From an uncultured Rikenellaceae bacterium (GTDB lineage: Bacteria; Bacteroidota; Bacteroidia; Bacteroidales; VadinHA17), in assembly GCA_964399575.1 (NCBI GenBank), contig CAYNRI010000004.1:1-62386 (forward strand): a DNA stretch of 62,386 nucleotides, in the 5' to 3' direction. The notes beneath the pieces were generated by a model. The model was not told the DNA's origin. It did no database searches and worked only from the letters and a program-made list of their open reading frames with translations. Of this stretch, positions 5,799 to 42,152 are shown piece by piece. How positions within the stretch are numbered: position 1 is the first letter of the stretch; every line of letters begins with the position of its first letter. Position numbers and translations under genes: made by a program.

Positions 5799-5814
5799 TA
5801 CAAGATAATATCAG

Positions 5815-6432: not shown

Positions 6433-6445
6433 AATGTCTCACTCT

Positions 6446-7096: not shown

Positions 7097-7099
7097 ATC

Positions 7100-8973: not shown

Positions 8974-8994
8974 TCCAGTATATTTCTCAGATTC

Positions 8995-12815: not shown

Positions 12816-13616
12816 TCAGCCTCCTATATTATAAAACCTTCCTGTCAGATTTCTTACTCCGCATTCAGGCTTCATCTGTATAGCTTCCTGAATGGCTCTC
12901 TCATAACCTGTTTTTCTTATATCTATTTCAATATCACTGAAAAGGCATGGTTTAAGCTTACCGTTGGCTGTAAGCCTGAGCCGGTTGCATGACGAACATC
13001 TGCCGCCTTCTCCCCCCTCCACAGGAAAGAAATGACCGTTTACCAGATCCATCTGACGTATATACCTTATTGCCAGTCCCTTCTTATAACAGTAATCCGT
13101 TACCTCCTTTGCGTCTTTTTCTTCAATTGATTCACGTATAACACAATTGATCTTTACCGGAGTCAATCCTGCTCTTATTGCAGCATCTATACCTTCAATA
13201 ACATCTTCAACGTTCCCTCCTCTGGTGACAGCAGCAAAACGTTCCTTGCTGACAGAATCGAGGCTGACATTTACCCTGTGCAGACCAGCCTCTTTCAGAT
13301 CATCGGCAAAATCCTTAAGGAGGACTCCATTTGTTGTCATCGAAAGATCCTTTATCCCATCTATGGCTGCTATCATCCTTACCAATACAGCAATATCCCT
13401 TCTTACAAGAGGTTCTCCTCCTGTTATCCTGACTTTCTTAATGCCGGTTTTAACAGCGAACCGGGTAAATTCAGCAATCTCATTGAATGAAAGGATATCC
13501 TCATGCCTGAGTAAATTGACTCCTTCTTCCGGCATACAATAAACACACCTGAGATTACAACGGTCAGTGACCGATATACGCAGGTAGTCTATAGATCTGT
13601 TAAACCTGTCTAACAC
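12816..13616 (-). CDS. moaA: GTP 3',8-cyclase MoaA, unusually compact (266 aa), GTG start
   Basis: Radical-SAM motif YLRISVTDRCNLRCVYCMP, auxiliary-cluster cysteines CSSCNRLRLTANGKLKPC, and the C-terminal GG typical of MoaA. The start codon is GTG at 13616 with no in-frame ATG nearby. Confidence 0.85.
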   Translation of the reverse strand: MLDRFNRSIDYLRISVTDRCNLRCVYCMPEEGVNLLRHEDILSFNEIAEFTRFAVKTGIKKVRITGGEPLVRRDIAVLVRMIAAIDGIKDLSMTTNGVLLKDFADDLKEAGLHRVNVSLDSVSKERFAAVTRGGNVEDVIEGIDAAIRAGLTPVKINCVIRESIEEKDAKEVTDYCYKKGLAIRYIRQMDLVNGHFFPVEGGEGGRCSSCNRLRLTANGKLKPCLFSDIEIDIRKTGYERAIQEAIQMKPECGVRNLTGRFYNIGG

Positions 13617-14775: not shown

Positions 14776-15851
14776 ATTGGTTCTTTTCTTGAGAAAACTA
14801 TCGGAGCCTCAGAAGAAAATGTTATCCACACTTCAGATAGCTCTTTAATATTTAGTTCCTTAAATTCACTACTCTTAATTTCGGCGTGTATGATCTCACC
14901 TGCATCAAGGCTTATTTCCATCCCTGTCTCTGAAGGATAAATTTCCCTGACAACAGCTCTGAACATATTCTTCTGATTATAACCTGCTGACAATATATTT
15001 AAAATTTTTACTTCTTCACTCCTTATAGCCAGCAGTCCTTCCTGAGGGTAGTCTCCTGACGAAATACTGATCATCATCTTATTCCCTGTCAAGGCTTTCC
15101 ATGAACCATCCTCGGTATAAAGTTTTACACTGAAGAAATTCCTTATGCCGGCATATCGTGCTATAAACTCATTTGAAGGCCGTATGAAAACCTCATCTGG
15201 TTTTCCTTCCTGAATTATACGGCCGTTATGCAGGACCCCAACTCTTGCAGCAAGGCTTATTGCCTCCCTGTAATCGTGAGTGACATGTAAAATTGTTAAT
15301 CCATCAGCGTTCAGCTTCCTGAATATCTTCCTTATATCGTCCTTCAGGCTTGCATCAACAGAAGCCATCGGTTCATCAAGAAGAAGAAGCTTCGGAGCTG
15401 TTATGAGTGTTCTGGCAAGAGCTACACGCTGCAGCTCACCTGCTGACAGATTATGTGTTAAACGGTCAAGCAGATCATGAATATTCAGCCTTTCAGCTGC
15501 CTCAGCAACCATTTTACCTATGTCGGCATGGCTGTACTTTCTGCAGCGCAAAGGGAATGAGATATTCCCGGACACCGTCATATTCGGAAAAACAGCAAAA
15601 TCCTGGAACATCAGCCCTATATTGCGGTCCTGTATCCTGGCTTTTGTGACATTCTTCCCAGCTATCCTTATCTCACCTGAATCAGGGACATTCAATCCGG
15701 CTATCAGTTCCAGGAGCTGTGACTTACCTGAACCTGACCTGCCGAGTAGGACAAAATATGCACCTTCAGGGATGTCGAGATTGATTCCTGAGAGAGCAAA
15801 ATCGCCCAGCTTCTTATTTACATCAATCAGTTTCAGCATGAGGACGGGCAT
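14772..15851 (-). CDS. ABC transporter ATP-binding protein (molybdate/tungstate type, C-terminal TOBE-like domain)
   Basis: Walker A GRSGSGKS, signature LSAGELQRV, Walker B LLLDEP, plus a roughly 120-aa C-terminal extension. An alternative ATG at 15839 would give MLKLIDV. Confidence 0.8.
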   Translation of the reverse strand: MPVLMLKLIDVNKKLGDFALSGINLDIPEGAYFVLLGRSGSGKSQLLELIAGLNVPDSGEIRIAGKNVTKARIQDRNIGLMFQDFAVFPNMTVSGNISFPLRCRKYSHADIGKMVAEAAERLNIHDLLDRLTHNLSAGELQRVALARTLITAPKLLLLDEPMASVDASLKDDIRKIFRKLNADGLTILHVTHDYREAISLAARVGVLHNGRIIQEGKPDEVFIRPSNEFIARYAGIRNFFSVKLYTEDGSWKALTGNKMMISISSGDYPQEGLLAIRSEEVKILNILSAGYNQKNMFRAVVREIYPSETGMEISLDAGEIIHAEIKSSEFKELNIKELSEVWITFSSEAPIVFSRKEPI

Positions 15852-16632
15852 TCAGATGATTTTTTCCTGCAGGTATAAGCCTGAGTATTATGAAAACTGC
15901 CAGTGCAATTATTATGAACAATACTGAAGCAGGCCTTGCATATTTAAGTCCGAAAGAAGTGAATCTGTCATAAATCATTACAGGGGCTATCATCGGGTGA
16001 TAGGCAATTATAACAACTGCTCCGAATTCACTCATTCCCCTGGCAAACATAAGGACGAATCCCGATGTAATATTACGCCATGCAAGAGGCAGTGAGATGC
16101 TGAAAAATACTCTTGACTGGCTTGCACCGAGAGTCAGGGCGGCTTTTTCAAGACGTTCGGGAACCGAGGCGAATCCGTCGCGAGCAGAATTGATAAGGAA
16201 AGGCAGGCTTACGAAGGCCATTGCAAGAGCAATTCCTGCAGGCCTGTTGATAAAAGTAAGTCCTACAGAATCAGCAACTTTACCCAGGAAACCATCGCGG
16301 GAGATAAAACCGAGCACTGCAATTCCTGCTGCAGTATGGGGCAAAACGACAGGAAGATCGATTATCCCCTGCACTAATCCTTTAAAAGGGAATTTCTTCC
16401 TTGCAAGCACCCATGCGAGCGGCACTGCCCCGATAGCAAAAAAGAAAGTCGCGGCAAAGGAGACCCAGAGGGTAAGCCAGATACTCTGCTGCACATCCTT
16501 ATCACCGACAGTCTCTAGCAGCTCAGAACCTTCTGTATGAAGGAACATGCCTGTTAGCGGTGCCAGAATGAAGAGCAGCACCAGCGATGACAGGATAAGC
16601 AGTATCCAGTTAAATGGGCTATTCTTTAGCAT
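15823..16632 (-). CDS. ABC transporter permease (ModB/WtpB-like)
   Basis: Polytopic permease with an EAA-like loop (LEKAALTLGASQSRVFFSISLP). The track start at 16701 is GTG; the first ATG (16632, MLKNSPFNW) leaves a 14-nt overlap with the binding-protein gene. Confidence 0.75.
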   Translation of the reverse strand: MLKNSPFNWILLILSSLVLLFILAPLTGMFLHTEGSELLETVGDKDVQQSIWLTLWVSFAATFFFAIGAVPLAWVLARKKFPFKGLVQGIIDLPVVLPHTAAGIAVLGFISRDGFLGKVADSVGLTFINRPAGIALAMAFVSLPFLINSARDGFASVPERLEKAALTLGASQSRVFFSISLPLAWRNITSGFVLMFARGMSEFGAVVIIAYHPMIAPVMIYDRFTSFGLKYARPASVLFIIIALAVFIILRLIPAGKNHLNARPHAETD

Positions 16633-17599
16633 CAGCAGGTTTTTCTTTCCCGGATCCAAGGTATTTTCTGAGTATTTCAGGTACAAGATCCGTTTGTTCA
16701 CTTATTAAAGGCGTTAACGGATCCTGCCCGTTCCTCCTGAATATTTCAATACCTTCCGGGCTGAGCAGGAAAGATACAAAATCCATTGCCGCCTCCTCAT
16801 TGGGAGCATCTTTTAGTACAGTCAGACTGTAATTAATATATTCACCCCTGACAGTCATCCTGCTTCCGGGCGAACTTCCCGTAACTTCAAGTGAGACAGA
16901 ACTGTACAAAGAGTCATAAGCAGGATTACCAAGATTGATCTCCGAAGGCAGTACTACATAGTTCAGTCCGTGTTGTATTGCAACCGATTTATACTGGAAC
17001 ATATAATCAATTGAATTTGATTCAATCAGAACGACAAGATCAACCTCTTTCGGTCGAATGAACTCCCTGTTTTTTATAGTCATTTTATCTGCCAGACCGT
17101 TCACTCCGTAGTGTTTTTCGGCAAGCTTTAAGAGCATTACGGTTCTGTATCCGCAAGGATCGGCATCAGGGTCAGACCTTCCGAAAATGACGTCATCCCT
17201 CATAAGAATATCGTACCAGTTTTCAGAACTTATCTCATCTGAATACTTTGCTTTTGACTGAAAGGCTATCACTAATTCATTTGTTGCAAACCGCACTGCC
17301 CAGGATGCATATTCAGGTATCAGAAGCTCATCAATTACAACATAATCTGCAGATGCAACTATGTCGCATGGCCTTTTCAGCTCTGTCACTTTACGGGCAC
17401 AGACAAGGCTGCCGGCAGGTTCAGAAAGTACCCTTATACCAGGGTTTTTCTCCTGATAGATATCAGCGATCTCCTTAAAAGGGACAGACAGGCTCCCTGC
17501 ATGAAAAATTATTATTTCTCCTGTCCTTTTATTCGCGAGCGATATACATCCCGTGAGTGAACAGGCGGCTAAAAAAATCAGAATGACAGTCCTCTTCAA
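16619..17599 (-). CDS. Periplasmic oxyanion-binding lipoprotein, WtpA-like (tungstate/molybdate)
   Basis: Lipobox LAACSLTGC. The pattern IIIFHAGSLSVPF...AGS...ARKV......CDIVASADY resembles the WtpA/ModA class as I recall it. TTG start at 17599, no in-frame ATG. Confidence 0.65.
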   Translation of the reverse strand: MKRTVILIFLAACSLTGCISLANKRTGEIIIFHAGSLSVPFKEIADIYQEKNPGIRVLSEPAGSLVCARKVTELKRPCDIVASADYVVIDELLIPEYASWAVRFATNELVIAFQSKAKYSDEISSENWYDILMRDDVIFGRSDPDADPCGYRTVMLLKLAEKHYGVNGLADKMTIKNREFIRPKEVDLVVLIESNSIDYMFQYKSVAIQHGLNYVVLPSEINLGNPAYDSLYSSVSLEVTGSSPGSRMTVRGEYINYSLTVLKDAPNEEAAMDFVSFLLSPEGIEIFRRNGQDPLTPLISEQTDLVPEILRKYLGSGKEKPADAKE

Positions 17600-17657
17600 A
17601 CAGCCTATATATTATTATACGTAAAAAATGACCTGCAAGTTAGGTAATGCAGCCTGT

Positions 17658-19811
17658 TTATTGATATTTTTCAACCACTTCTATCACCTCTGGAAAATCC
17701 ATTCCTATTTTTTTCAGGAATTCAATTGTTGGAACACCGTTACTATTCCAGCCCCTTCTTCTGTACACTGCATCCTGGAGTTTTTCGTACTGGTCTTCAC
17801 GGTATTTCCTCAGTATCTTCATTTTTTCCTCAGTAGTCATTCCTTCCGGATCCACTCCCACTTTTTCCTTCAATTGCTTATCATATCTTTCGGCACGAGA
17901 TTCATATTCAGCTTTTGTGACCGGCCCGGCAGCCCGGTAAGGCTGTCTGTCGTTGATCCTTTTTCCGTATCCCCTTCTTATGTTGAACACCCTCTGAAAA
18001 CTATAAACCCTTTCTGAGTCTTCAACAAGTCTTTCCCTGCTGAACTCCCGTCCTGTTACAGCTTTGTATATAGTCACATAATTATCGACATGTTCGGGGA
18101 CTTTAGCAGGTTCGTCAGTCTGTGCATTGCTTTCCGGTTCTACATCGTTCCATGGCAGCTTGCAGAGGCCCACAAGGCCGAACCAGGTCCTGAACATCGG
18201 AAAATAGTGAAGAGCTTCAGCTTTATTCTCAAAGGTAGGGATCTGGTTATTGACCATATCCATGAAGATCAGCCATGCTTCATCGTGCTGGGGACCTTTA
18301 TTTGTCAGTCCGAATCCTCCCTGTTGTGCAAGTGATTCCTTTGGCATATACTGTGAATATTCAAGCCCTTTCTGTTCCATTGCAATATCGTTAAGGAAGC
18401 CGGCATCGCCCCATTCGTTTCTGATGAACAGCTCTTTCATCTTTCTCACACCCTGGCCGGCTATGATCCCGAATCCTTCACCCCTGGCCAGCTGGTGCAG
18501 GAGTTCCAGGGCATCCCCGGAATTTCCGAATCTCAGTTCGAGTCCTCCGGTCCTTTCGGTATTAAGTATGCCATTCTCAAAGCACTCCATTATGAAAGCC
18601 ATGCTTGTGCTCCATGTTATTGTGCAGATGCCGTAGGTATCACAATAGAAGTTTGTTTCGATAATGTAATCCGGATCGAATATCCCGGAGTTTGCACCCA
18701 GTCCGGCTGCGTTTTCATATTCCGGGCCATCAACAATTACTTTATGTCCGGCATAGGGACCTGTTTTTATCTCATAATCATCGATCCCTTTGGTGCACGA
18801 CATATTGCATCCTATCCAGCAACCGTCGGGGATATTCTGGGTAAAATGACTTTTCCACACTGATGAATCGATCTTCCATGCATCGGGGTGGCTGCCATAC
18901 TGGTAATTCATTACGGGAAGCAGGTCGTGGTCGTTCATTATCTCCATAAGGTGGGCTGTTCCCACCTGGCGCATCTGGCATTGCTCGTCGTCAAGTTCGC
19001 GTATTTCCCGGTTGAATCTTTTACCTCTCTCAATTATTGCCTCAAGGTCAACCACATTATTAAGGTTCCCTTTCACTCCCGGGATCTTGCAAACGAGGGC
19101 CCGAATTTTTTTATTCCTGAAAACTGTTCCGATTCCTCCGCGTCCGGCTTGTTTCAGCCTGATCTTTTTTCTTCTCGGGTCATAGAAGCTGAAGTTAAGC
19201 ATCCCGATGAGAGAATTATCGGCTGCAGAACCGGTTGAGACAATCCCGATATTTTTCTTTTCATCTTCACTGTCAGCAAAAATACCGGTAAGCTGTTCAA
19301 CAAGCACATGGCTGTCGGGAGCAGCATCAGGAGCTTCGTACAACTCAACTTTATGGTTTATCCCGTCGATGAATATTATCACATCTTTTTCAGCTTTCCC
19401 CTGCAGTTCGAGGGCATCGAAGCCCGAGAATTTCAGGAAAGGACCGAAGAAGCCCCCAACGTTACTGTCCATTACAGAGTTGGTCTGAGGAGAAATACTC
19501 ACTACAAGTGATTTACCAGTACCGGAATACTGGGTTATCCCTCCTATCGGTCCTGACGAAATTATTATTTCATTTTCCGGATCGTCCCATTTTGTATCAG
19601 GAGAAGTGGCATCCCAGAGAAGGCGGAGGCCATAGCCTTTTCCTCCAATGAATTTTTCTTTCATAACAGGAGGTACATCTTTTTCTTTTATCTCCGCGGT
19701 TCCGGCGTTTACATAAAGGATTTTATCGGTGTAGCCCCTGCTCAGAGGAGTCCACACGTATTCCCAACTCTTAATAAGCCGGTAATTAATCTTTTTCGGA
19801 TCTTTATCCAT
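17658..19811 (-). CDS. Aldehyde:ferredoxin oxidoreductase (AOR) family tungstopterin enzyme, long form (717 aa)
   Basis: AOR N-terminal domain (GYTDKILYVNAGTAEI...FIGGKGYGLRLLWD), a central Cys cluster (DGCWIGCNMSC) and the C-terminal AOR domains. Followed 58 nt later by the transporter and cofactor genes. Confidence 0.85.
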   Translation of the reverse strand: MDKDPKKINYRLIKSWEYVWTPLSRGYTDKILYVNAGTAEIKEKDVPPVMKEKFIGGKGYGLRLLWDATSPDTKWDDPENEIIISSGPIGGITQYSGTGKSLVVSISPQTNSVMDSNVGGFFGPFLKFSGFDALELQGKAEKDVIIFIDGINHKVELYEAPDAAPDSHVLVEQLTGIFADSEDEKKNIGIVSTGSAADNSLIGMLNFSFYDPRRKKIRLKQAGRGGIGTVFRNKKIRALVCKIPGVKGNLNNVVDLEAIIERGKRFNREIRELDDEQCQMRQVGTAHLMEIMNDHDLLPVMNYQYGSHPDAWKIDSSVWKSHFTQNIPDGCWIGCNMSCTKGIDDYEIKTGPYAGHKVIVDGPEYENAAGLGANSGIFDPDYIIETNFYCDTYGICTITWSTSMAFIMECFENGILNTERTGGLELRFGNSGDALELLHQLARGEGFGIIAGQGVRKMKELFIRNEWGDAGFLNDIAMEQKGLEYSQYMPKESLAQQGGFGLTNKGPQHDEAWLIFMDMVNNQIPTFENKAEALHYFPMFRTWFGLVGLCKLPWNDVEPESNAQTDEPAKVPEHVDNYVTIYKAVTGREFSRERLVEDSERVYSFQRVFNIRRGYGKRINDRQPYRAAGPVTKAEYESRAERYDKQLKEKVGVDPEGMTTEEKMKILRKYREDQYEKLQDAVYRRRGWNSNGVPTIEFLKKIGMDFPEVIEVVEKYQ

Positions 19812-28989: not shown

Positions 28990-29823
28990 TTAAACTCCTG
29001 CAAACAGCTGGTCCGGTATGGCAGGTATTATGCCCTTATCCGAGGCTATCCTGTACAGTCTGGTGACTGCCTCTCTGCCTTCATGACCCAGGTTAACCGT
29101 GAATTTATTCACATATAGTTCTATATGCTTTTGCACCACATCCCTTTCCATCTCACGGGCATTCCCAGAAACAAATTCCTGCGATGCAACCGGATCTCTT
29201 AAAGCAAATCCGATGCTTCTGTGAATTATCCGATTAACGGCCAGAGCTGTTTCTCCGGGGATACTCCTGTTTATAACTATCATTCCAAGCGGAACAGGTA
29301 GTCCGGTCATTCCTTCCCAGAATTCACCCAGATCTGCTATCTTCTGTAATCCTTTTTTCTTATATGTAAACCGGCCCTCATGAATAATGAGCCCTGCATC
29401 CGCTTCGCCGTTGAGCACTGCGTTTTCGATCTCAGAAAAGAGATACTCAGTCTTATTTGCAGCCTCAGGCCAGGCGATACTGAAAAGCATGTTTGCGGTC
29501 GTATATCTGCCTGGTATTGCAATCCTCGCAGTAGCAAGACTGGCATTATCAATTTTCCCCCTGCTGACAAGCAAAGGACCATTTTTAAATCCGAGAGCGC
29601 TTCCTGAATCGAGTATCATATAATTTCCTGCAGCAAATGCATAAGCAAAGCTGCTTATCTTTGTAATATCAGGCTTTCCGGTAAAAGCTTTCCGGTTCAG
29701 TTCCTCGATATCTGCCAGATAATATTCAAAATCAATCCCTTCGGTATCAATTTTCCCATTCACAATTGCATCGAAGATGAATGTGTCATTAGGACATGGA
29801 GAAAAACCAAGAGTCAGTCTCAT
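28990..29823 (-). CDS. mqnD: 1,4-dihydroxy-6-naphthoate synthase (futalosine pathway MqnD)
   Basis: The N-terminus MRLTLGFSPCPNDTFIFDAIVNGKIDTEG matches the MqnD signature (SPCPNDTF). Confidence 0.75.
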   Translation of the reverse strand: MRLTLGFSPCPNDTFIFDAIVNGKIDTEGIDFEYYLADIEELNRKAFTGKPDITKISSFAYAFAAGNYMILDSGSALGFKNGPLLVSRGKIDNASLATARIAIPGRYTTANMLFSIAWPEAANKTEYLFSEIENAVLNGEADAGLIIHEGRFTYKKKGLQKIADLGEFWEGMTGLPVPLGMIVINRSIPGETALAVNRIIHRSIGFALRDPVASQEFVSGNAREMERDVVQKHIELYVNKFTVNLGHEGREAVTRLYRIASDKGIIPAIPDQLFAGV

Positions 29824-29824
29824 G

Positions 29825-30514
29825 CTATATGCTAATTGTTGTAAGAAATTCTTCCAATGCCAGGGCCAGAGTTTTAAGAGCCAGCGGGATATCCCACTTT
29901 TGTTCCGGACGCGGACCGATAAGATTGGATACCGCCCTCAGTGCAAGATAATCAACTCTTTCACAGCTGCAGATATATGCAAATGTTGCACCTTCCATAG
30001 TTTCTATATCAGGATCATATTTATTTACAAGTCGGGCTATTGTTTCCAGAGTTCCTGTTGCGGTGTTCACAGTCACTGCCTTCACTTTTCTGAGTTTAGC
30101 TGCAGCAAGGTCAACAAACCTGTTATCGCAGATTATCTTTCCGCTCCTGAAAGGGAAGTTGTCGGGATCCTCAAGTCCGGCTTCAGCAAGTGTTATAAAG
30201 CCTCTTCCTGATTCAATCCCTGCATCGGCAAAGCAATCTGAAACCGGCAAAACCACTTCACCTGCCGGGATATCTTTTCTAAAACTCCCGGCGATTCCGA
30301 TATTGATTGCCAGATGCGGTTTCTCATTTACTGAGAACCATTTTGACAACGACCATGAAGTGCCTACAGATCCGACCCCTGTAACCAGAAGGTCAATCTT
30401 ATTGTCATGCAAAGTATATCCCCCCCCCGATTCAGTGAGAAACGGAATATTTCTTATTATACCGGCTTCTCCTTCTGTCGCAGCTACAATCAAAATCCTT
30501 TTCAACCTATTCAA
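29825..30514 (-). CDS. mqnB: Futalosine hydrolase (MqnB, nucleosidase family), TTG start
   Basis: ILIVAATEGE...LLVTGVGSVGT...E.MEGA nucleosidase motifs, adjacent to mqnD. The N-terminal region has no in-frame ATG; the TTG at 30514 (or 30505) lies inside a GTTGAA repeat array. Confidence 0.7.
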   Translation of the reverse strand: MNRLKRILIVAATEGEAGIIRNIPFLTESGGGYTLHDNKIDLLVTGVGSVGTSWSLSKWFSVNEKPHLAINIGIAGSFRKDIPAGEVVLPVSDCFADAGIESGRGFITLAEAGLEDPDNFPFRSGKIICDNRFVDLAAAKLRKVKAVTVNTATGTLETIARLVNKYDPDIETMEGATFAYICSCERVDYLALRAVSNLIGPRPEQKWDIPLALKTLALALEEFLTTISI

Positions 30515-32615: not shown

Positions 32616-32761
32616 GAAAACAGGGAAAAAACATCCCCCTGCCCCCTTCAAAGGGGGAATCGGCTTGTGCTGCACCGTGTGGCCCGCCCCCTGCCCTGCT
32701 TTTCTTGCCGTCGCGCCTTTGTGCCGTCGCGCCTTTAAGCCGTTGTGCCGTTGCACCGTTC
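32616..32761. repeat. G/C-rich island 4, filling the convergent gap between fabD and the 988-aa gene
   Basis: CCTTCAAAGGGGGAAT (32645-32660) is the exact reverse complement of 19964-19979. Hairpin CCCCCT(TCAA)AGGGGG. TGCCGTCGCGCCTTT repeated at 32706 and 32722. GCCGTTG x2. Confidence 0.85.
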
Positions 32762-35728
32762 CTAGGGCTTCATTATCACACCCTTGTGTCTTCTGCCATC
32801 GATCATAATGCCTAGTGGCTTATCAAATCTCACATGCCTTATATAGTTGTCTTCGTACACAGCCGCTATATTGTTAAGGTACCCGACATCATAATATCCT
32901 TCATTTATAAAAGGATTAATTGTAAAATACCCTACCCGGAAAGATGTGAGATTCTGGAAGAAATGTGTACCCTGACTGGGATCAATACGGTAATTCTGTA
33001 GCCCGGATTCAATGATTATTCTTGCTGCAGAAATCTGAGCCCATTTAACCGGAATCCCAAGCCATGGATCGGCAGAGCCCCACCTTCCAGGTCCGATAAG
33101 CACATATCCGCTGCCCTGTCTGACAAATGAGGAGTTAAGATTATCTATAACAATAGCTGTTTTTTTATTATTGACAGGGTTGAAGGAGTCTGGTTTTACA
33201 TACACAAGATCCTGAATGCCCTTAAAGGTGCCATTCCCAAGCGCTGACTCGGAGAGTATGATTGTATTTTCAGATCTTACGTTCTGCAGATTGATATTAT
33301 GTGTTTCATCCGAGTGGACTACTGGTCTTATCTGGAGAAAATTAAATGTTTTAGGTGTTCCGGCAGGAGTCTCAAGGTTTGCCGCAAATTCTATTTCTAT
33401 AGGATTATTCATCTCCTTCTGGCCAAGATCAAGAATTGTTGTCAGTATCTCCGCCAGCGGGAAGGCCTTATGTTGCAATACCCCTGCAAAGGTTATTAAC
33501 CTCTGCCCGGATTGATTTATTCCGTCACGAAGAACATTATTGGTCCTGTCATAGGTTGATGCCAGATACTTCAACGCGCCATCGTTGTTTGCATCCTTTA
33601 TGTCAATGCTTGGTATGTTAACACCATCGTCAGTTGACGGGACAAAACTTTCAATATTCAGATCAAGAGCCCTGAATTCTTTCTGTGTATCCCGCAGTGC
33701 TGTCCCTGGTGAAGAGAGCTGAAGTATCTTTTTGGGATGCTTCGGACAGAACCGGAGTGATAGTCCTCCCTCAACTATAAGCTTCCCAAGCCCGAAGGCA
33801 ACATTAGCTATTCCATCCTCTGCTTTTTCAGGACCTATGGGATAATAGTTTATTGATCGTGCCACCCCTGATATTGTCGGGTAAAAGATATTACCATGCC
33901 TGCTGCCGCACACCTCCTGAAGTATTATCCCCATTTTTTCTTCATCGATCACATTAGCTGTGGCTGTCATATAGGCTTTACTGGATTTAAAATATACAGA
34001 CGCATAAACCTCTTTTATTGCATCCGACAGAGCTTTAACCATTAGCTTGTTATCTGCCAGCCGTGGTATCATATAGGTTGAGTAAACACCAGCAAACGGT
34101 TGATAATGTGAGTCTTCTAATTTACTTGAAGATCGTACAGCTATGGGATTGCTGCGTGATACAGAAAGATATGCATAGAAATCCTGATAAACCCTCCCGG
34201 GAAGCTCGGCATTCAGGAATCTGTTAAGTATCTCATTATCGGGAAGGTCTGACAGAGCTGCCGAATAGAGATTGTTATGTTCCATGAACTCGTCAAAGAT
34301 ATCCGTGCTCAACACTACTGTCCGCGGGATAGTTATCAGTACATCCGGAAACTTATTGAACAACTTGTTGTTCTTTATCATCCTGTTGATGAAGGCAAGT
34401 CCTCTTGCCTTCCCTCCTATTGAACCTTCTCCGATACGCGAGAATATCTGGTATTCATCAAAGCTTGTTTTGTCAAACTTGGCTATAACTCCCCTCCCCT
34501 TACCCAGACGGAAACTTGAAATGGCTACGTACAGAAAACGACGCATTTCATCCATTGTTGAGAAATCTTCCTTTCTGATGTATTTGAACATCTGAGCAAC
34601 AGGGAAAAGTGCTCTTGCATTCAGCCATTTCGAAAAATGGTTCCTTGTTGCATGGTATTCAAGGGAGTTATCCGGTATAGTGAGAAGCTTCTGCTGAAGG
34701 CTCTGGAGATCTGTTGCTATTGCTATTGGTTCAAGGGTATCAGGATTCCTGAAGACAAATGGTCCGAAAGCCAGGTTCTGGATGATGAAGTTGCGGAGCT
34801 CAATCGATAATGATCTGGAATACTTATGAATGAAAGCCGCCCCCATCTCTTCAGCCCTTTTTTTATGCCCGAGATTTGACGACTGCAGCAGGATAGGAAC
34901 CTTGTCATCATCAGCCATCACAACCTTGCAGAGCTCAAAACCCGCATCCTCATCCTGCATATCATCCCTTTTATAGCTTATATCTGAGATCACTCCCAGA
35001 ACATTATATTTATACTTTTTGTACAGAGCAACTGCATCATTGAAATTATTTGCCAGCAGTATCTTTGGTCTGCCTCTCATCTTCAGCGTTCTCTGGTGTT
35101 CATTAAGAGCCTCTCTTTGAAAATCAAGAGATTGCATAAGAACTATCCTGTAAATATTGGGCAGATATGCTGAAATATATCTTATAGAGTTCTCAACAAG
35201 TATTATTGACTGAACACCAATATCTATATCATGTTCGGCATTCATTTTATCCTCAATAAGCTTTATTATTGCAAGGATAAGCGATGCGTCACCTAGCCAG
35301 CAGAAAACATAATCAATAGCACTCAAATCTTCTCCCTGGAGCCGCAGAGAAACTTCCCGTGAGAAATGAGTAAGAACAACTATCGGGATTTTGGGATATG
35401 TCTCTTTGATTCTTTTAGCCAGGGCAAATACATCGCTTCCCTTTAGGCTTATCATTGAGATCACAAGGTCAACGTTCTCATCCTGAAGTATCCTGAATGC
35501 ATCCGCATCATTGTCAGTCTGAACGAAAATGGGAGGATATCTGAGATTAAGCGACACATACTCATTGAAGATCTGTTCATCGATCCTGCCATCTTCTTCA
35601 AGCATATAATTATCGTAATTGCTGCAGATAAGAAGGACACGATGGATTCGTTTCTGCATCAGGAGATTGAACGAAGTATCCGCAAAATCATATTTCTGAA
35701 GATCCAGTATTCCTTCAATGATTGTCAT
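32762..35728 (-). CDS. Receiver-like x2 / PEP-synthase-type ATP-grasp (PPDK_N) domain protein, 988 aa
   Basis: Two receiver-like modules (VLLICSNYD..; IILVENS...GVISDIS...PILLQSS...FIHK). ATP-grasp motifs GGKARGLAFIN, PIAVRSSSKLEDS and GIILQEVCG. C-terminal YVLIGPGRWGSADPW...GTHFFQNLTS. There is no room for a PEP/pyruvate TIM barrel. Confidence 0.7.
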   Translation of the reverse strand: MTIIEGILDLQKYDFADTSFNLLMQKRIHRVLLICSNYDNYMLEEDGRIDEQIFNEYVSLNLRYPPIFVQTDNDADAFRILQDENVDLVISMISLKGSDVFALAKRIKETYPKIPIVVLTHFSREVSLRLQGEDLSAIDYVFCWLGDASLILAIIKLIEDKMNAEHDIDIGVQSIILVENSIRYISAYLPNIYRIVLMQSLDFQREALNEHQRTLKMRGRPKILLANNFNDAVALYKKYKYNVLGVISDISYKRDDMQDEDAGFELCKVVMADDDKVPILLQSSNLGHKKRAEEMGAAFIHKYSRSLSIELRNFIIQNLAFGPFVFRNPDTLEPIAIATDLQSLQQKLLTIPDNSLEYHATRNHFSKWLNARALFPVAQMFKYIRKEDFSTMDEMRRFLYVAISSFRLGKGRGVIAKFDKTSFDEYQIFSRIGEGSIGGKARGLAFINRMIKNNKLFNKFPDVLITIPRTVVLSTDIFDEFMEHNNLYSAALSDLPDNEILNRFLNAELPGRVYQDFYAYLSVSRSNPIAVRSSSKLEDSHYQPFAGVYSTYMIPRLADNKLMVKALSDAIKEVYASVYFKSSKAYMTATANVIDEEKMGIILQEVCGSRHGNIFYPTISGVARSINYYPIGPEKAEDGIANVAFGLGKLIVEGGLSLRFCPKHPKKILQLSSPGTALRDTQKEFRALDLNIESFVPSTDDGVNIPSIDIKDANNDGALKYLASTYDRTNNVLRDGINQSGQRLITFAGVLQHKAFPLAEILTTILDLGQKEMNNPIEIEFAANLETPAGTPKTFNFLQIRPVVHSDETHNINLQNVRSENTIILSESALGNGTFKGIQDLVYVKPDSFNPVNNKKTAIVIDNLNSSFVRQGSGYVLIGPGRWGSADPWLGIPVKWAQISAARIIIESGLQNYRIDPSQGTHFFQNLTSFRVGYFTINPFINEGYYDVGYLNNIAAVYEDNYIRHVRFDKPLGIMIDGRRHKGVIMKP

Positions 35729-38700
35729 TTTTCCTTCTTTTCATTGTTCATAGTGATGACAGCCAGGCTTTTTTTCCCGTCCATTCTGATATTGAGAGGC
35801 TTGTCAAAACGGACATGACTGAAGAAACGGCCTTCCCTGATGACTCTCTGTGCCCGCAGCTTTTCCCAGTTGACTGATCCCTTCTGAGCCATCTGATCAA
35901 TTGAAAAATAACCTACTTTCATGGAGGTAACATTATGAAAGAAATGAGAACCGAGCGAAGCATCAAGCTGAAAGCCGGGAATTCCAATTTCGACAATCAC
36001 CTTGGCATTACATATCTGAGGCCATGTAACAGGTATCCCAAGGAACTTATCTCTTGTTCCCCATCTGCCCGGACCAATAAGCACATAGTTACGGTTCTCT
36101 TTAAGCATATCATCGTTGAAATCATCAATTTCCTCTGCCATGTTATTCGTGGAAAGATTATCGAATTTTTCAGGTTCCAGGTAAATGAGATCTGTTATGT
36201 TTTCTATTATTCCGTTTCCCATGCTCCTGGGAGACTCAAGTATCAGGTCGTCTTTTCTAATTAACCCCGGGTCAATGCTATATCCTGCCCCGCTCCCAAT
36301 CAGCGGCTTGATCTGCAGAAGGTAGAATGTTGCCTGACCCTCGCTGTCCTTTGTCATATCGACTGCAAACTCAATTTCTGAAGGATTGGCTGTTGCTTCC
36401 GCAACAACATCAAGGATTGTTTTCAGAGAAGAAGAAAGGGGTATATAGTTGTATTTAAGTATATCGGCAAAATTAACAACCCTCGGACCATATGAATCAA
36501 GTCCTGGTATTATAGCATCATTATCTGAATTGAGCACGGAAGCCAGATGATCCAGGGAACCATGAGACTCAGCAACACTTATATCAAGCAAAGCCAGTCC
36601 GGTTTTCTCTCCCTCCAGGAGATCAAGATTCGTTTTAGACAGGTCAACAGCATAAAATTTTACCTGTGAATTCCTGTAGAGATCCGTCTGTGAAATAATA
36701 TCAAGATTCGGATAGGCTGGCGAAAAGCGAAATGCCCTTTCTCCTTCGGCAACATAATGTCCCAGTCCTAATGCCATTACAGCGACTCCATCCTGGGGTG
36801 TCATATGCGAAACAGGATAGAAATTATATGACTGGGCAGTCCCGCTTATGTGAGGATAAAAATAATCTCCAAACCTGTTGCCGACAACCTCCTGTATCAC
36901 AACGGCCATTTTTTCAAGTTCAATCTTATAATTTATAGCATCAAAGAAAGTCCGCGAGCTCTTTGAATAAATAGACGAAAAAACCAGTTTTATTGCTCCG
37001 GCAAGCTGCCTTAACCTGACCTCAAATTCAGTATTGTTATTCGGGAGCAGATAGGTGCCGAAGACACCCGAGAAAGGCTGGTTCATAGAATCTTCGAACA
37101 GGCTTGATGATCGAACCGCTATTGGTTTGTTGACCTGCTTCAGGAATACCCTTAGTTCCTTTTCAAGTGTATAGCTCAGGCTTCCCTGCAGGAAATACTT
37201 CTGAAGAACTTCATAATCCCTCTCTGTATTGATCTTGTCCCATAAATGGTTACGCTCCATGAACATATCAAACTCATCGGTGCCGATAATAGCCGTTACA
37301 GGTGTCTTGATTGTTATGCCGGGCAATAGTCTTCCAAGCTCAAAACTGTTGATAAGAGTATTAATAAAAGCCAGCCCTCTTCCCTTTCCGCCAAGCGACC
37401 CGGCTGACAGACTTACAACATTAGTGTCGTCTATAACAGCCGTTTCCTCGAAATTGATTACCCGGCCCTTATTCAGTTCACGCCTGCGCATTCTTATGAG
37501 AGACAAAAGATGTTCCCTGAGCTCTTTAAGGTTTTTATATTCCGATACCCTCAGAGGATTTATCTGTTTGGCAATCTTTACCTCTCCCCTCGCCATTAAC
37601 CAGAGGGAAAAATGATTTCTTAATGCGTGATATTCAAGTGAATCTTCAGGTACTGTTTCCAGGTAAGCTTCAAATTCCTTCATTGTTTTGGCAACTGCTA
37701 TCTGCCGTCCCTTGTCGTCTCTGTAAACGAAATGACCAAAGCCCAGATAATAGTTGATAAATGACTTCAGATCCTTCATAAGGCTCTCTGAATTCTTGTT
37801 TATGAAGTTCGATTTAAGTGAATATGCGTAAGTTGCATTATCCGGATCAGACGACTGAAGAACTGTCGGCAGATTAGGTATCACCGACTTTATATGCTTT
37901 ATAAGCTCAAAACCAGCAGTATCATGTACTACTCCGTTTTTTGTGAACCGGATATCGGAGATAACACATAAAAGGTTGTTTTCATATTTATTAAAAACAG
38001 TTATTGCATCCTCATAATTCGATGCAAGAAGTATCTTCGGCCTGGTCTTAAGCTTAAGCACTTTAAAAAGCTCATCGGCTGAAACCTCTTCAATAAGGTT
38101 CCTTGTCTGCTCCATAACGAGGTTATACAACATCGGCAGGTAACTTGAATAATACTCCGATGAGTCCTCAACAAGCAATATTACTCCAATGAGCCCTTTC
38201 TTGGTGTCATTGTCAACATTAACCCTGTCCTCAAGAAGATTTACCATTGCAAAGAAGACCTTTGATTCACCTGTCCAAACGAAATAATTGTCAATCGGAA
38301 CACCTGCCTCTTTCTGGCTTTTCACAAAAGGTACATCTGCCGGATTATTGAGGAGGAGATAGGTCGGCATGTAAGGATATTTATCCTTTATTTTTCTGCA
38401 CATCTCGATGGGGTTCTCCTTGTGAACGCCTATCATTATTATGACCATGTCATAATGTCTTGCTTTCAGTCTTGTGAAAGCTTCCTCTTCACTTGATACT
38501 CCTGTAACACGTGGCAGGGAAGTAAGGCTCAGCTGGTAATACTCACCGAGCATATGATCAGCGAATCTTCCTTCTCCTTCAATTGAATAGGCGTCATAGA
38601 GATTGGCAACAAGAAGTATCTCCTTAACCTTGAAAGGCTGGAGGTCATGGAAAACATCCCGTTCTGCATTATGCCTTTCAAGGAATTTCTGCAGCAGCTT

Positions 38701-39186
38701 TCTGCTTGAGGCCTCTTTCAGGTCCTCTTCCTCTTCATCGGAGACCTGTTTCCTTAAGATTATATCACGGGCCTTGGCACTGTTGATGTATCCTGTTATA
38801 AGGCCTGCAATGTTCTGTATCAGGTCTCTCTCCTCTTTGAGAAAGGGTCCTTCTTCTTCCCGGTTAAATTCTTTTGTATAGCATATCTCGATATATCCAT
38901 TCTCATTATCGATAGTGTTGAATTCCTGTTTCATTATCCAGCTCGTTTGCAGGAATCCAGGTGTCTCGAATGACTTATCAATGTATGAAATGCGGGCTAC
39001 TGTGTATTTCGGGTATTGCCAGGCAGCTGGCAGTAAGAGTACGATCTGCTGCAGAGTCTCTTCTACTGGTTTGCCTTCCTTGAGAATGTAGGTTGTCTGG
39101 TTTATGCAGCCGAGCTCTTTTAACCGTTCATGCTGCTCATGCATCAAACGGTGGTATTCGGGACTTATCTGATTGTTATCTTCCAT
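35725..39186 (-). CDS. Sensor-module / receiver-like x2 / PPDK_N ATP-grasp protein, 1153 aa (paralog of the downstream gene)
   Basis: Extra N-terminal 140 aa (LKELGCINQ...AAWQYP...GPFLKEERDLI). The rest is collinear with the 988-aa paralog (GGKGRGLAFIN, PIAVRSSSLFEDS, VVIQEVVG, YVLIGPGRWGTRD, GSHFFHNVTS). ATGA overlap with the next gene, and 32 nt after the korB stop. Confidence 0.7.
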   Translation of the reverse strand: MEDNNQISPEYHRLMHEQHERLKELGCINQTTYILKEGKPVEETLQQIVLLLPAAWQYPKYTVARISYIDKSFETPGFLQTSWIMKQEFNTIDNENGYIEICYTKEFNREEEGPFLKEERDLIQNIAGLITGYINSAKARDIILRKQVSDEEEEDLKEASSRKLLQKFLERHNAERDVFHDLQPFKVKEILLVANLYDAYSIEGEGRFADHMLGEYYQLSLTSLPRVTGVSSEEEAFTRLKARHYDMVIIMIGVHKENPIEMCRKIKDKYPYMPTYLLLNNPADVPFVKSQKEAGVPIDNYFVWTGESKVFFAMVNLLEDRVNVDNDTKKGLIGVILLVEDSSEYYSSYLPMLYNLVMEQTRNLIEEVSADELFKVLKLKTRPKILLASNYEDAITVFNKYENNLLCVISDIRFTKNGVVHDTAGFELIKHIKSVIPNLPTVLQSSDPDNATYAYSLKSNFINKNSESLMKDLKSFINYYLGFGHFVYRDDKGRQIAVAKTMKEFEAYLETVPEDSLEYHALRNHFSLWLMARGEVKIAKQINPLRVSEYKNLKELREHLLSLIRMRRRELNKGRVINFEETAVIDDTNVVSLSAGSLGGKGRGLAFINTLINSFELGRLLPGITIKTPVTAIIGTDEFDMFMERNHLWDKINTERDYEVLQKYFLQGSLSYTLEKELRVFLKQVNKPIAVRSSSLFEDSMNQPFSGVFGTYLLPNNNTEFEVRLRQLAGAIKLVFSSIYSKSSRTFFDAINYKIELEKMAVVIQEVVGNRFGDYFYPHISGTAQSYNFYPVSHMTPQDGVAVMALGLGHYVAEGERAFRFSPAYPNLDIISQTDLYRNSQVKFYAVDLSKTNLDLLEGEKTGLALLDISVAESHGSLDHLASVLNSDNDAIIPGLDSYGPRVVNFADILKYNYIPLSSSLKTILDVVAEATANPSEIEFAVDMTKDSEGQATFYLLQIKPLIGSGAGYSIDPGLIRKDDLILESPRSMGNGIIENITDLIYLEPEKFDNLSTNNMAEEIDDFNDDMLKENRNYVLIGPGRWGTRDKFLGIPVTWPQICNAKVIVEIGIPGFQLDASLGSHFFHNVTSMKVGYFSIDQMAQKGSVNWEKLRAQRVIREGRFFSHVRFDKPLNIRMDGKKSLAVITMNNEKKEK

Positions 39187-39218: not shown

Positions 39219-40241
39219 CTAATCAACTTTCCATGTTGATCCGCTTGTAAGCAGATCATCCATACATTTTATCTTTGCGGTTTTTCCTATGTTACTTATC
39301 TGTTCCTCCACATCAGTCTCATAAGTATGCCCTTCCACAGACCTAATCACTCCGAGTGCGACCGGATAATCAGGGTATCTCATATTAGCAAGCATATAGT
39401 GTATCCCGGGATTTGATTCACCGGAATCATGAACAAGAATATCTTTCTCTGTGATATTATTCTCACCCAGGCGGACTACTTTAAGTTTCAGCCCTTCAAG
39501 GATCAGACCCTTATCGTTATTCTTTCCGAATAACATTGGCTCACCATGTTTCAGAATTATAGTTCTGTCTTCACGTACCTCTTTGCCCGTAACAGCTTCA
39601 TGAATACCGTCATTGAAGATCACACAGTTCTGCAGCACTTCAACTACAGATGTTCCCCTGTGCCTTCCGGCTTCAACGAAGATGCCTGTTGAAAGTGCAA
39701 CACTGGCATCGAAGGTCCTGGCAAAGAATTTCCCCCTTGCACCAATTACAATTTCTCCTACAGAGAATGGTTCTTCTACTGTCCCGAAAGGAGAAGTCTT
39801 TGTAACAAGTCCTCTTTCAGAGGTCGGCGAATACTGACCTTTTGTTAGACCATAGATCTCATTATTGAACAGAATGATATTAATATCTATATTTCTGCGT
39901 ACCGCATGAATGAAATGATTCCCTCCGATTGCCAGTGCATCGCCGTCACCTGTTATGTTCCAGACTGAGAGCTGCGGATTTGCAGTTTTAACGCCTGTTG
40001 CAATAGCAGCAGCTCTTCCGTGTATACTGTGAAATCCGTAGGTATTCATATAATACGGGAATCTTGATGAACAGCCTATTCCTGAAATGAAAGCAAATTT
40101 CTCCCTGGGTATCCCCAGTTCTGAAAGAGCTTTCTGGATTGCATTCAGAACGGCATGGTCACCACAGCCCGGGCACCATCTCACTTCCTGGTCGCTCTTA
40201 AAATATTTTGGCGTATGATTTAAGTTAAGATTCTCTTCCAT
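39219..40241 (-). CDS. korB: 2-oxoacid:ferredoxin oxidoreductase beta subunit (KorB-like, TPP-binding)
   Basis: WCPGCGD, GIGCSSR, GDGD and NN..YGLTKGQ.SPT motifs. Confidence 0.85.
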   Translation of the reverse strand: MEENLNLNHTPKYFKSDQEVRWCPGCGDHAVLNAIQKALSELGIPREKFAFISGIGCSSRFPYYMNTYGFHSIHGRAAAIATGVKTANPQLSVWNITGDGDALAIGGNHFIHAVRRNIDINIILFNNEIYGLTKGQYSPTSERGLVTKTSPFGTVEEPFSVGEIVIGARGKFFARTFDASVALSTGIFVEAGRHRGTSVVEVLQNCVIFNDGIHEAVTGKEVREDRTIILKHGEPMLFGKNNDKGLILEGLKLKVVRLGENNITEKDILVHDSGESNPGIHYMLANMRYPDYPVALGVIRSVEGHTYETDVEEQISNIGKTAKIKCMDDLLTSGSTWKVD

Positions 40242-40245
40242 AATA

Positions 40246-42093
40246 TTATCCCTCCAGGATTTTGATGCAATTATCCTTTATTTCTTTTATTGTAAAAGGC
40301 ATTCCCTGTACCTTGTTTATCTTGTGATAAGAGAATTCGGGGAATTTTATCCGTAAATAATCAGCGAACTGTCCGAGGTTCAATTCCGCAACAGCTATTT
40401 TTTTGAATTTACTGAATACCTCCTTTACATTCTTTGGCAGGGGATTAATAAAATTGAAACATGCCAGGCTGACACTGTACCCTTCTTCCTGTAATTCACT
40501 TGCCGCTGTCATCAGATAACCTTCTGATCCTCCCCATCCTGTGAGAAGAAGATCTCCCTGTGTCTCACCAAAGAGAGCCAGATCAGGTATATCATCTGCC
40601 ACTCTTGCAACCTTATCGGCTCTAATCCTTACCATCTGTTCATGGTTCTCAGGTATATAGGACACTGTTCCCTTCATAGTTTTCTCAAGCCCACCGATCC
40701 TGTGTTCAAGTCCGGGCGTTCCCGGGATAGCCCATGAACGTATCAGTTTCTCACAATCGCGCCTATATGGCAAGAACGGGATATCATTTTTATCAGCATA
40801 AGGCGGTTTTATTTCCGGAAGATCTTTCATCGCCGGGATTTTCCAGGGCTCTGAACCATTGGCAAGATATCCATCAGTCAGCATTATAACCGGGGTCATG
40901 TGTTCAACCGCTATTTTTGCTGCTGTAAAAGCAAAGTTGAAACAGTTGGCAGGTGTACTTGCTGCAATAACAACGACCGGGCTTTCGCCGTTCCTGCCGT
41001 AAAGGGCCTGTGACAGATCTGCCTGTTCAGTCTTTGTAGGAAGGCCTGTTGACGGGCCACCTCTCTGAACATCAACAATTACTATCGGAAGCTCCGCCAT
41101 AACTGCAAGACCAATTGCCTCTGATTTAAGCGCCAGTCCCGGACCTGAGGTTGATGTCACAGCCAGATATCCGGCAAAACTTGCGCCCAGAGCAGTACAG
41201 ATACCTGCAATCTCATCTTCAGCCTGGAAGCTTTTTACACCAAGGTCCTTACGGGCTGCCAACTCCTCAAGTATTCCGGTAGCCGGGGTAATAGGGTAAG
41301 ATCCTATAAAAACCTTCAACCCTGCCTTTTCTGCAGCAGCAAGGAAACCCCAGGCTGTTGCAGTGTTCCCGCAGATATTCCTGTAGCGGCCGGGAGCAAT
41401 CTGAGCAGGTTCAATCTTAATAACCGGATTCAGAGCCTCTATAGTTTCAGCATAATAATATCCTTTTCTCAGGGCAACCTTGTTCGCTTCGGCTATCTCA
41501 GGTTTGCTGGCAAACTTTATATCGAAATACTGCTCGGTATATTTAAGTTTACGGTCAAAAAGCCAGTAAACCATTCCCAGTGTAAACATATTCTTTGTTC
41601 TCAGTACCGATTTGGGATCAAGTCCGAAATCCTTTAGAGCTTCCCTGACCATTGAAGAAATGGGAGCAGCAATTATATTGTAATGCTCAAGCTTTTCCTC
41701 AGCAACAGGATCCAAAGTATATCCGGCCCTCTCAATATTCTTTTCCGTAAAATTATCCTTATCAAAAATTATAGTGCCGCCTGGTTTGACCCACCTTGCA
41801 TTTGCTTTTACTGCAGCGGGATTCATTGCAACAAGGACATCAGCATAATCACCTGGTGTTTTTATATCTGAATGCCCCAGATGGACCTGAAACCCTGAGA
41901 CACCGCCAACAGTTCCCTGTGGTGCACGTATCTCCGCCGGATAATCCGGAAAGGTTGACAGGTCATTTCCAAAAAGTGCCGCAGTATCAGAAAAAAGAGT
42001 ACCTGTAAGCTGCATCCCGTCTCCCGAGTCGCCTGAAAAACGGATCACAACCTCCTCCTTTGTAATAACCTTTGAGTTTTTGGCCATTATCAT
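40246..42093 (-). CDS. korA: 2-oxoacid:ferredoxin oxidoreductase alpha subunit (KorA-like, fused gamma/alpha domains)
   Basis: 615-aa two-subunit-type alpha subunit (GDSGDGMQLTG, YPITPAT, VDVQRGGPSTGLPTK). Confidence 0.85.
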   Translation of the reverse strand: MIMAKNSKVITKEEVVIRFSGDSGDGMQLTGTLFSDTAALFGNDLSTFPDYPAEIRAPQGTVGGVSGFQVHLGHSDIKTPGDYADVLVAMNPAAVKANARWVKPGGTIIFDKDNFTEKNIERAGYTLDPVAEEKLEHYNIIAAPISSMVREALKDFGLDPKSVLRTKNMFTLGMVYWLFDRKLKYTEQYFDIKFASKPEIAEANKVALRKGYYYAETIEALNPVIKIEPAQIAPGRYRNICGNTATAWGFLAAAEKAGLKVFIGSYPITPATGILEELAARKDLGVKSFQAEDEIAGICTALGASFAGYLAVTSTSGPGLALKSEAIGLAVMAELPIVIVDVQRGGPSTGLPTKTEQADLSQALYGRNGESPVVVIAASTPANCFNFAFTAAKIAVEHMTPVIMLTDGYLANGSEPWKIPAMKDLPEIKPPYADKNDIPFLPYRRDCEKLIRSWAIPGTPGLEHRIGGLEKTMKGTVSYIPENHEQMVRIRADKVARVADDIPDLALFGETQGDLLLTGWGGSEGYLMTAASELQEEGYSVSLACFNFINPLPKNVKEVFSKFKKIAVAELNLGQFADYLRIKFPEFSYHKINKVQGMPFTIKEIKDNCIKILEG

Positions 42094-42144: not shown

Positions 42145-42152
42145 CAAAATTA
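42145..42152 (-). promoter_or_regulatory. -7 promoter box TAATTTTG (TAnnTTTG) upstream of korA
   Basis: The plus strand reads caaaatta. It lies about 52 nt upstream of the korA ATG at 42093. Confidence 0.3.

Follow-up and report, generated by a model that had tools for sequence, protein, structure and literature searches.

What function is served by two large tandem paralogues encoded directly behind the genes for a 2-oxoacid oxidoreductase? The question is raised by a contig of an uncultured Rikenellaceae bacterium of the order Bacteroidales (GenBank assembly GCA_964399575.1, contig CAYNRI010000004.1), of which positions 1 to 62,386 of the forward strand were analysed. This whole stretch of 62,386 nt is called the window here, and all window coordinates given below are those of features on its minus strand. 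The two genes, termed P1 (35725-39186, 1153 aa) and P2 (32762-35728, 988 aa), are open reading frames (ORFs) located downstream of korA and korB. A preliminary description of the same DNA, made from its letters without database searches, had read their products as signal-gated ATP-dependent phosphotransferases wired to the KorAB enzyme. Its anatomy is largely right and its functional wiring too narrow. We consider it somewhat less than an even chance (a probability of roughly 0.45) that P1 and P2 are a duplicated pair from a cross-phylum family of receiver-gated, ATP-utilizing proteins, and that these modify a target at the 2-oxoglutarate/glutamate node of metabolism.

The arrangement of the two genes is as first described. 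Both ORFs lie on the minus strand, the stop codon of P1 and the start codon of P2 overlap as ATGA at positions 35725-35728 (read directly in the sequence), and a gap of 32 nt separates the korB stop from the start of P1. In a BLASTP comparison the two proteins align over 982 residues at 36% identity and with just 12 gaps (E = 0), and they are therefore true collinear paralogues over the length of the shorter one, as had been claimed; judged by this alignment, their similarity is far above chance level. The shared motifs listed in that description are present, and GGKxRG, RSSS..ED, GPGRWG and HFF are invariant across the family. On the basis of translation, Pfam and BLASTP, P2 consists of a pseudo-receiver, a receiver, a DUF5752-like domain, an ATP-grasp domain and a C-terminal domain (C-domain), and P1 carries the same series preceded by an additional N-terminal domain with a KEL.C motif. 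Orthologues of P1 are 75-97% identical, and those of P2 are 84-95% identical over many metagenome-assembled genomes of Bacteroidales. The duplication is lineage-specific; most genomes have a single copy at the locus.

The core of both proteins begins with an ATP-grasp domain of the PPDK_N type, which had been recognised by its motifs and is borne out by Pfam. The PF01326 match covers residues 436-811 of P2 (33296-34423; E = 3.6e-36, profile positions 3-317 of 328) and residues 597-962 of P1 (36301-37398; E = 3.1e-31, positions 3-309 of 328). Because the match spans nearly the whole profile, the ATP-grasp is complete, and what follows it amounts to about 177 residues in P2 and 191 in P1, not the approximately 250 first estimated. 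A phosphoenolpyruvate (PEP)/pyruvate TIM barrel, whose absence had been proposed, is not found by Pfam, and only these 177-191 residues remain. Within the P2 ATP-grasp, K440, R532, E780, Q799 and R801 are invariant or nearly so. A Foldseek search with the full P2 model returned as ATP-grasp relatives HpeI (9goj) and rifampin phosphotransferase (RPH, 5hv3), as well as tandem-receiver proteins including PleD. Profile matches in the PDB are confined to the first half of the ATP-grasp (RPH, HpeI and PEP synthases) and to the receivers.

The C-domain that completes the core occupies residues 812-988 of P2 (32765-33295), where AlphaFold2 models it with a mean predicted local distance difference test score (pLDDT) of 91.7 and where N865, G881, R882, D887, G891, E907, S918, G920 and H922 are invariant. 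The equivalent region of P1 (residues 963-1153, 35728-36300), delimited by BLASTP and family alignments, reads GPGRWG...IVE...SLGSH(1081)FF. The histidine in the motif S-x-G-[ST]-H-F-F (His922 of P2, codon 32963-32965; His1081 of P1, codon 35944-35946) is a candidate catalytic or phospho-acceptor residue, and is kept in 30 of 30 members of a diverse alignment. No Pfam match to the C-domain was obtained, even at E ≤ 10 with the C-terminal 171 residues. When a profile of 30 sequences was compared with PDB sequences, no PEP-utilizing enzyme was found, the best match being a longin domain (E = 0.11), and a Foldseek search of the PDB with the C-domain alone gave nothing significant (best E = 0.065, TM ≤ 0.33). 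The predicted fold is hence one without a known relative in the PDB. A diverged swivel phospho-His domain, suggested by eye from the patterns G.G..V, ILV..P.W and IVE..S.G[ST]H, was supported neither by Pfam nor by the PDB profile or Foldseek searches. The canonical phospho-His swivel domain is therefore missing along with the barrel, a domain of unmatched fold standing in its stead, and this had not been foreseen in the preliminary description. That the catalytic residues of the ATP-grasp and the C-domain invariants are so strictly conserved argues for catalysis.

Ahead of the ATP-grasp lie about 435 residues that form three domains. The preliminary description had placed two receiver-like modules in about 450 residues, and both receiver folds are indeed there, together with a third domain of approximately 110 residues that resembles DUF5752. 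In the full-length AlphaFold2 model of P2 (pLDDT 66), two successive (beta-alpha)5 receiver folds (residues 25-165 and 170-318) are followed by a small alpha/beta domain (320-430), the ATP-grasp and the C-domain. The first receiver fold of P2 (35234-35656) matches Response_reg with 38.4 bits, and its alignment to NtrC sets the residues ISMI, with Met92 in the acceptor position, against D54. Among 30 diverse members this acceptor column holds Met in 16 and Asp in none, and Y38 and D39 are invariant. As had been noticed at the outset, the acidic pocket is lacking; with Met in the acceptor position and no acidic pair, the first module is therefore a pseudo-receiver. Its counterpart in P1 (residues ~185-326, 38209-38634) carries IIMI in the acceptor position and was delimited by alignment to P2 and a weak Response_reg match at residues 224-278.

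The second module keeps its acceptor positions, again in agreement with the first reading. In P2 (residues 170-318, 34775-35221) the receiver is identified by its modelled fold, by Foldseek matches to PleD and by the conservation of E179, N180, D249, S283 and K302. Over the 30 diverse members, E179 is found in 30, D180 in 22, D249 in 26, S/T283 in 30 and K302 in 29, and in the P2 model these quintet residues sit on the expected strand ends. The P1 receiver (residues ~331-480, 37747-38196; VEDS...ISDI, with D411, ...LQSS...K), defined by BLASTP alignment to P2 and the family alignment, has the full quintet. The DUF5752-like linker of P1 (residues ~482-592, 37411-37743, LEYHA.RNHFS.WL) matches PF19027 narrowly, scoring 24.1 bits where the cut-off is 23 and covering profile positions 20-106 of 208, and many P1 orthologues carry a precomputed PF19027 assignment; the corresponding region of P2 (residues 320-430, 34439-34771) has no such match and is assigned by homology to P1 and by the secondary structure of the model.

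The extra N-terminal domain of P1 (residues 1-165, 38692-39186), a candidate sensor, contains the conserved Cys-bearing motif ER.KEL.CIN.TT...LLP.AWQYP...GPFL.EE.DL and has neither a Pfam match nor a PDB sequence match. It reappears between the two ATP-grasp cores of a natural fusion protein, P0366 (E = 9e-15), and is thus a mobile module, possibly a sensor. Two such fusions, P0366 (1639 aa) and P0386 (1523 aa), contain two PPDK_N cores per chain, in which a family-type core and one of a second subtype are linked together with the P1 N-terminal domain; one core of P0366 is of the window's type and the other of the nucleotidyltransferase-associated type. This second subtype (type B) comprises the ATP-grasp and C-domain without receivers, fused to a nucleotidyltransferase. 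It is represented in locus L242 (11374-14097, plus strand) by a 908-aa protein encoded straight after a family member and a glutamate dehydrogenase (GDH) gene. The protein is 25% identical to P2, keeps all the C-domain invariants, including the equivalent of His922, and ends in an NTP_transf_2/Polbeta domain. The two-core fusions suggest that such cores act together and, taken with the ATGA overlap, favour a complex of P1 and P2.

How widespread is this architecture? When 1.84 billion representatives of clusters at 50% identity were searched exhaustively, the family clusters numbered 5094 at E ≤ 1e-3, 3171 at 1e-10 and 1182 at 1e-30. More than 150 clusters align end to end at 32-51% identity, and the length is nearly always about 990-1000 aa. 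Members occur in Bacteroides, Phocaeicola, Prevotella, Paludibacter, Muribaculaceae and Flavobacteriia, and outside the Bacteroidota in Chloroflexota, Gemmatimonadota and Candidatus Eisenbacteria; the Bacteroides cluster contains 2222 member sequences. Between Bacteroides species the protein is 94-96% identical, the DNA is about 80% identical and synonymous sites are saturated, which shows the family to be under strong purifying selection. Bacteroidales- or Bacteroides-like copies (51-94% identical) are also found on contigs binned as Thiohalospira, Acutalibacteraceae and Coprobacillus (L075, L113, L133 and L170), one of which, L075, has synteny of the Bacteroidales type; these contigs are probably misbinned. 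Neither Pfam, NCBIfam, the PDB nor the searchable literature yielded a characterised member, as the preliminary description had supposed, and literature searches on PPDK_N combined with response regulators, on DUF5752 and on genes downstream of gdhA found nothing on the family, no member of which appears to have been characterised so far.

Across phyla, the neighbour that turns up most regularly is GDH. In distant Bacteroidota loci a 445-aa GDH is the commonest neighbour (25 of 63, with a median spacing of about 65 nt), in the arrangements GDH>P>GDH>, GDH<P>, P>GDH>, GDH<P1>P2>GDH> and P>GDH>P>, where P is the family gene. Among 79 Bacteroides loci, 43 have a GDH gene no more than 8 kb away; in several Bacteroides loci the roughly 3 kb that follow a gdh gene are precisely the family gene, oriented convergently. 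Of 120 partial stretches of 8 kb, 46 contain GDH, that of P. vulgatus ATCC 8482 among them. GDH is also present within 7 kb in all seven loci from outside the Bacteroidota (Chloroflexota, Gemmatimonadota, Eisenbacteria and unclassified), in four of them directly adjacent. As a genome contains one or two gdh genes among thousands, these neighbour frequencies are far above chance. Intermediate arrangements combine both partners, with korA-korB-P1-P2-GDH in L077 and L094 and korA-korB-P2-GDH in L100.

Other neighbours belong to the same part of metabolism. Bacteroides GDH genes are often accompanied by those for peptidases, a second GDH and a MaeB-type malic enzyme. The loci outside the Bacteroidota also encode saccharopine dehydrogenase with aldehyde dehydrogenase, and a GltD-like protein; in L243 and L245, genes for AlaDh_PNT_N, saccharopine dehydrogenase and aldehyde dehydrogenase immediately precede the family member on its own strand, and L242 shows the two dehydrogenases only, as the locus ends there. 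Lysine degradation via saccharopine consumes 2-oxoglutarate and yields glutamate. Since GDH is the partner conserved across phyla, the link is to the 2-oxoglutarate/glutamate node and not to KorAB specifically. In seven Bacteroides loci (L168, L169, L171, L172, L174, L175 and L185) the family member stands between two different GDH genes, most often in the order M24 aminopeptidase<, GDH<, S9 prolyl oligopeptidase<, family gene>, GDH< and MaeB-type malic enzyme<; these may be NADPH- and NADH-specific enzymes placed around one regulator.

The observed architecture, conserved residues, breadth and constraint of the family, and its gene neighbourhoods, could be explained as follows. A kinase would phosphorylate the receiver Asp (D249 in P2, D411 in P1), and the phosphorylated receiver would, via the pseudo-receiver, alter the protein's oligomeric state in the manner of PleD-type tandem receivers. 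Such a change would turn on the ATP-grasp, and the core would then spend ATP to modify its target, perhaps by way of the invariant His. The target would be located at the 2-oxoglutarate/glutamate node, most likely GDH and, in the lineage of the window, KorAB as well, so that flux between 2-oxoglutarate and glutamate would be tuned to the signal. The anatomy would agree with the label of a signal-gated ATP-dependent phosphotransferase. One possible source of the phosphoryl group is a hybrid two-component protein of about 1300 aa, with Reg_prop/Y_Y_Y, HisKA, HATPase_c, receiver and AraC helix-turn-helix domains, whose gene is divergently adjacent in L121, L123, L125, L127 and about eight more Bacteroides loci.

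Baggio and Morrison reportedly described in 1996 an unidentified trans-acting gene product needed for GDH activity in Bacteroides, and are reported to have complemented that activity with a 3-kb fragment from downstream of gdhA and to have failed to obtain mutants; to our knowledge the finding has not been explained since. A bolder version of our proposal would equate the family with this GdhA factor, as a cross-phylum regulatory system with a new His-bearing catalytic domain that covalently modifies GDH (and KorAB in some Bacteroidales) and has in gut Bacteroidota a role like that of PknG/GarA or GlnD/GlnE. We regard this version as doubtful. An assignment of the B. thetaiotaomicron locus to BT_1970-1973 was rejected, BT1971 being described as a catalase.

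Several observations weigh against assigning the family to the 2-oxoglutarate/glutamate node by this mechanism. There is no gdh gene in the window, neither GDH nor korAB occurs in the flanks of 41 of the 159 Bacteroidota loci, and in some Bacteroides loci the hybrid two-component gene is the neighbour instead of GDH. The neighbourhood counts are not phylogenetically independent, and the B. thetaiotaomicron locus is not among the best 80 Bacteroides loci or the degenerate-DNA-pattern matches listed. P2 has Asn as the second acidic residue of its receiver quintet, and the full-length model, from which the inter-domain geometry would be read, is mediocre. Because the C-domain is not a recognisable swivel domain, a dikinase-type His relay is a guess. 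The role as a whole is proposed from sequence, models and gene context.

The core might instead act on a small molecule, phosphorylating or otherwise ATP-activating a compound of 2-oxoglutarate, glutamate or amino-acid catabolism while the receivers simply gate the reaction. Such a metabolic enzyme would parallel the members of the PPDK superfamily that act on pyruvate, phenol, 4-hydroxyacetophenone, rifampin and glucans, the nearest relatives of the ATP-grasp are small-molecule dikinases (RPH, HpeI and PEP synthases), the neighbouring genes encode metabolic enzymes, and the C-domain could be a new substrate-binding domain. Known pathways at the node, however, need no such step. A protein of about 1000 aa with two receivers, and in P1 a sensor-like domain, is more typical of signalling, the sister core is fused to a nucleotidyltransferase, a domain usual in regulators that modify proteins or nucleotides, and one and the same family is found beside changing pathways (KorAB, GDH, saccharopine, peptidases). 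We therefore judge a purely metabolic role to be rather unlikely.

The proposal of the preliminary description, that the pair is co-transcribed with korAB and acts on KorAB or its substrates, draws on the immediate surroundings of P1. The two-subunit 2-oxoacid:acceptor oxidoreductase directly upstream consists of a korB-type beta subunit (39219-40241; TPP_enzyme_C; TIGR02177 239 bits, just under the cut-off of 262) and a korA-type alpha subunit of the fused gamma-alpha form (40246-42093; POR and POR_N; TIGR03710 642 bits, above the cut-off of 483). Against substrate-specific equivalog models every score for KorAB is under its cut-off, and specificity for 2-oxoglutarate is not readable from the sequence. 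A scan found no terminator-like site between korB and P1. A terminator-like hairpin at 32635-32655, approximately 110 nt past the P2 stop, is a candidate end of the transcription unit, and a match to the Bacteroidetes -7 promoter motif, TAATTTTG (42145-42152), located 52 nt upstream of the korA ATG, is a weakly indicated candidate for the operon promoter, the only promoter-like motif of the unit being upstream of korA. Because TAnnTTTG motifs are no more frequent in the window than chance would give and a sigma-70 promoter scan is uninformative for Bacteroidota, the operon structure is one that we infer: the 32-nt gap, the lack of an intervening terminator-like site and a motif at chance frequency point to co-transcription of korA-korB-P1-P2.

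Across genomes, korAB is directly upstream in about 84 of the 159 Bacteroidota loci, a few of them distant (such as L100 and L153). Most of these loci, however, come from close relatives that share the entire block bamA-skp-skp-murI-korA-korB-P1-P2 in synteny, and the adjacency there therefore tells little about function. In some relatives a P2-type gene alone follows korAB, and the pair is present without korAB in L074, L076 and L078. In loci of the L008 type three opposite-strand genes intervene between korB and P1, and the pair there must therefore own its promoter. At identities of 58% or less the family gene is usually single and korAB absent, and no korAB surrounds the gene in Bacteroides, Prevotella, Flavobacteriia or the seven loci outside the Bacteroidota, where GDH is found instead. 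The linkage is thus confined to the Bacteroidales lineage of the window, is interrupted or lacking in part of its relatives and disappears in most distant genomes. The preliminary description had itself named absence of the linkage from related genomes as grounds for refutation, and this is in part what is observed. A pair dedicated to KorAB is accordingly improbable, and the adjacency would be the local form, in this lineage, of the association with the 2-oxoglutarate/glutamate node.

A general signalling protein beside metabolic genes by coincidence, for instance a global regulator or an energy sensor in which ATP binding serves as input only, would agree with the 41 loci that lack both partners and with the scanned ORFs of the window, among which there is no histidine kinase gene. 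The occurrence of GDH next to or near the gene in 30-100% of the sampled sets, from four or more phyla and in varied orientations, speaks against coincidence, and the strictly conserved residues of the core speak against ATP as a mere input, leaving this explanation a small chance.

The remaining surroundings of the pair are of a housekeeping nature, with bamA, two skp genes and murI upstream and fabD and folE convergent downstream. Elsewhere in the window, a VitK2_biosynth gene (MqnA/MqnD type) and an adjacent gene of the PNP_UDP_1 phosphorylase family (28990-30514) suggest that menaquinone is made by the futalosine route. Near a MoeA molybdopterin/tungstopterin biosynthesis gene (13600-19811) is encoded a 717-aa aldehyde:ferredoxin oxidoreductase (AFOR_N, AFOR_C), another ferredoxin-linked oxidoreductase of the window besides KorAB. 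A fused E1 alpha/beta component of a 2-oxoacid dehydrogenase (814 aa) is encoded at 742-3186, and downstream of its gene, at 4545-10347, are genes with NqrF-like domains (Fer2, FAD_binding_6, NAD_binding_1), NQR2/RnfD/RnfE and NqrA, which probably belong to a Na+-NQR operon.

GDH and 2-oxoglutarate synthesis form a meeting point of carbon and nitrogen metabolism, and little is understood of how it is controlled in Bacteroides, Phocaeicola and Prevotella, the genera that dominate gut and rumen. The family, with its thousands of sequences, is abundant and very strongly constrained, and databases list it under the mistaken names of PEP synthase, PPDK or histidine kinase. It could explain how gut Bacteroidota match ammonia assimilation and amino-acid catabolism to supply, and its chemistry, once found, would define a new branch of the PPDK-type ATP-grasp superfamily. 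The proposed link to GDH is directly testable in genetically tractable Bacteroides.

There is virtually no chance that P1 and P2 are true PEP synthases or pyruvate phosphate dikinases, as records named 'phosphoenolpyruvate synthase' or 'pyruvate, phosphate dikinase' would have it on the strength of PPDK_N, since Pfam finds neither the PEP-utilizers His domain (PF00391) nor the PEP-utilizers_C barrel (PF02896), scores on the PEP synthase models of NCBIfam reach 40-52 bits where the cut-offs are about 598-1063, and the 177-191 residues after the ATP-grasp have an unrelated fold, so that without barrel and canonical swivel His domain the database name is wrong. With PpsA and PPDK the family shares the homologous PF01326 ATP-grasp and its motifs GGK, RSS..ED and E.E...LQ.R. 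It differs in lacking the PF00391 swivel (GG.TSHAA) and the PF02896 barrel, and in that its ATP-grasp is preceded by two receiver folds and a DUF5752-like domain and followed by the domain of unmatched fold.

RPH (5hv3, 5fbs, 5hv6) and HpeI (9goj) give the best profile and Foldseek matches to the ATP-grasp, at 15-16% identity in the aligned part, and illustrate that an ATP-grasp of this kind need not be paired with the PEP/pyruvate barrel but can go with different substrate domains. HpeI is the ATP-grasp component of a split dikinase and works with a His-domain partner, and RPH relays phosphate through a C-terminal swivel His domain, whereas no His domain is detectable in P1 and P2. The input half resembles PleD, a top Foldseek match (E ~1e-7), in that two (beta-alpha)5 receiver folds follow each other and only one carries the acceptor Asp; in P1 and P2, however, the pseudo-receiver comes first and the output is an ATP-grasp core rather than GGDEF. 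Although the GarA/OdhI-PknG and GlnD/GlnE systems have no kinship in sequence or fold with the P1/P2 family, they offer an analogy, from general knowledge, for the role proposed here, that of signal-dependent post-translational control at 2-oxoglutarate and glutamate, and the likeness to GlnD/GlnE extends to the sister core that in L242 is fused to a nucleotidyltransferase domain and encoded beside GDH.

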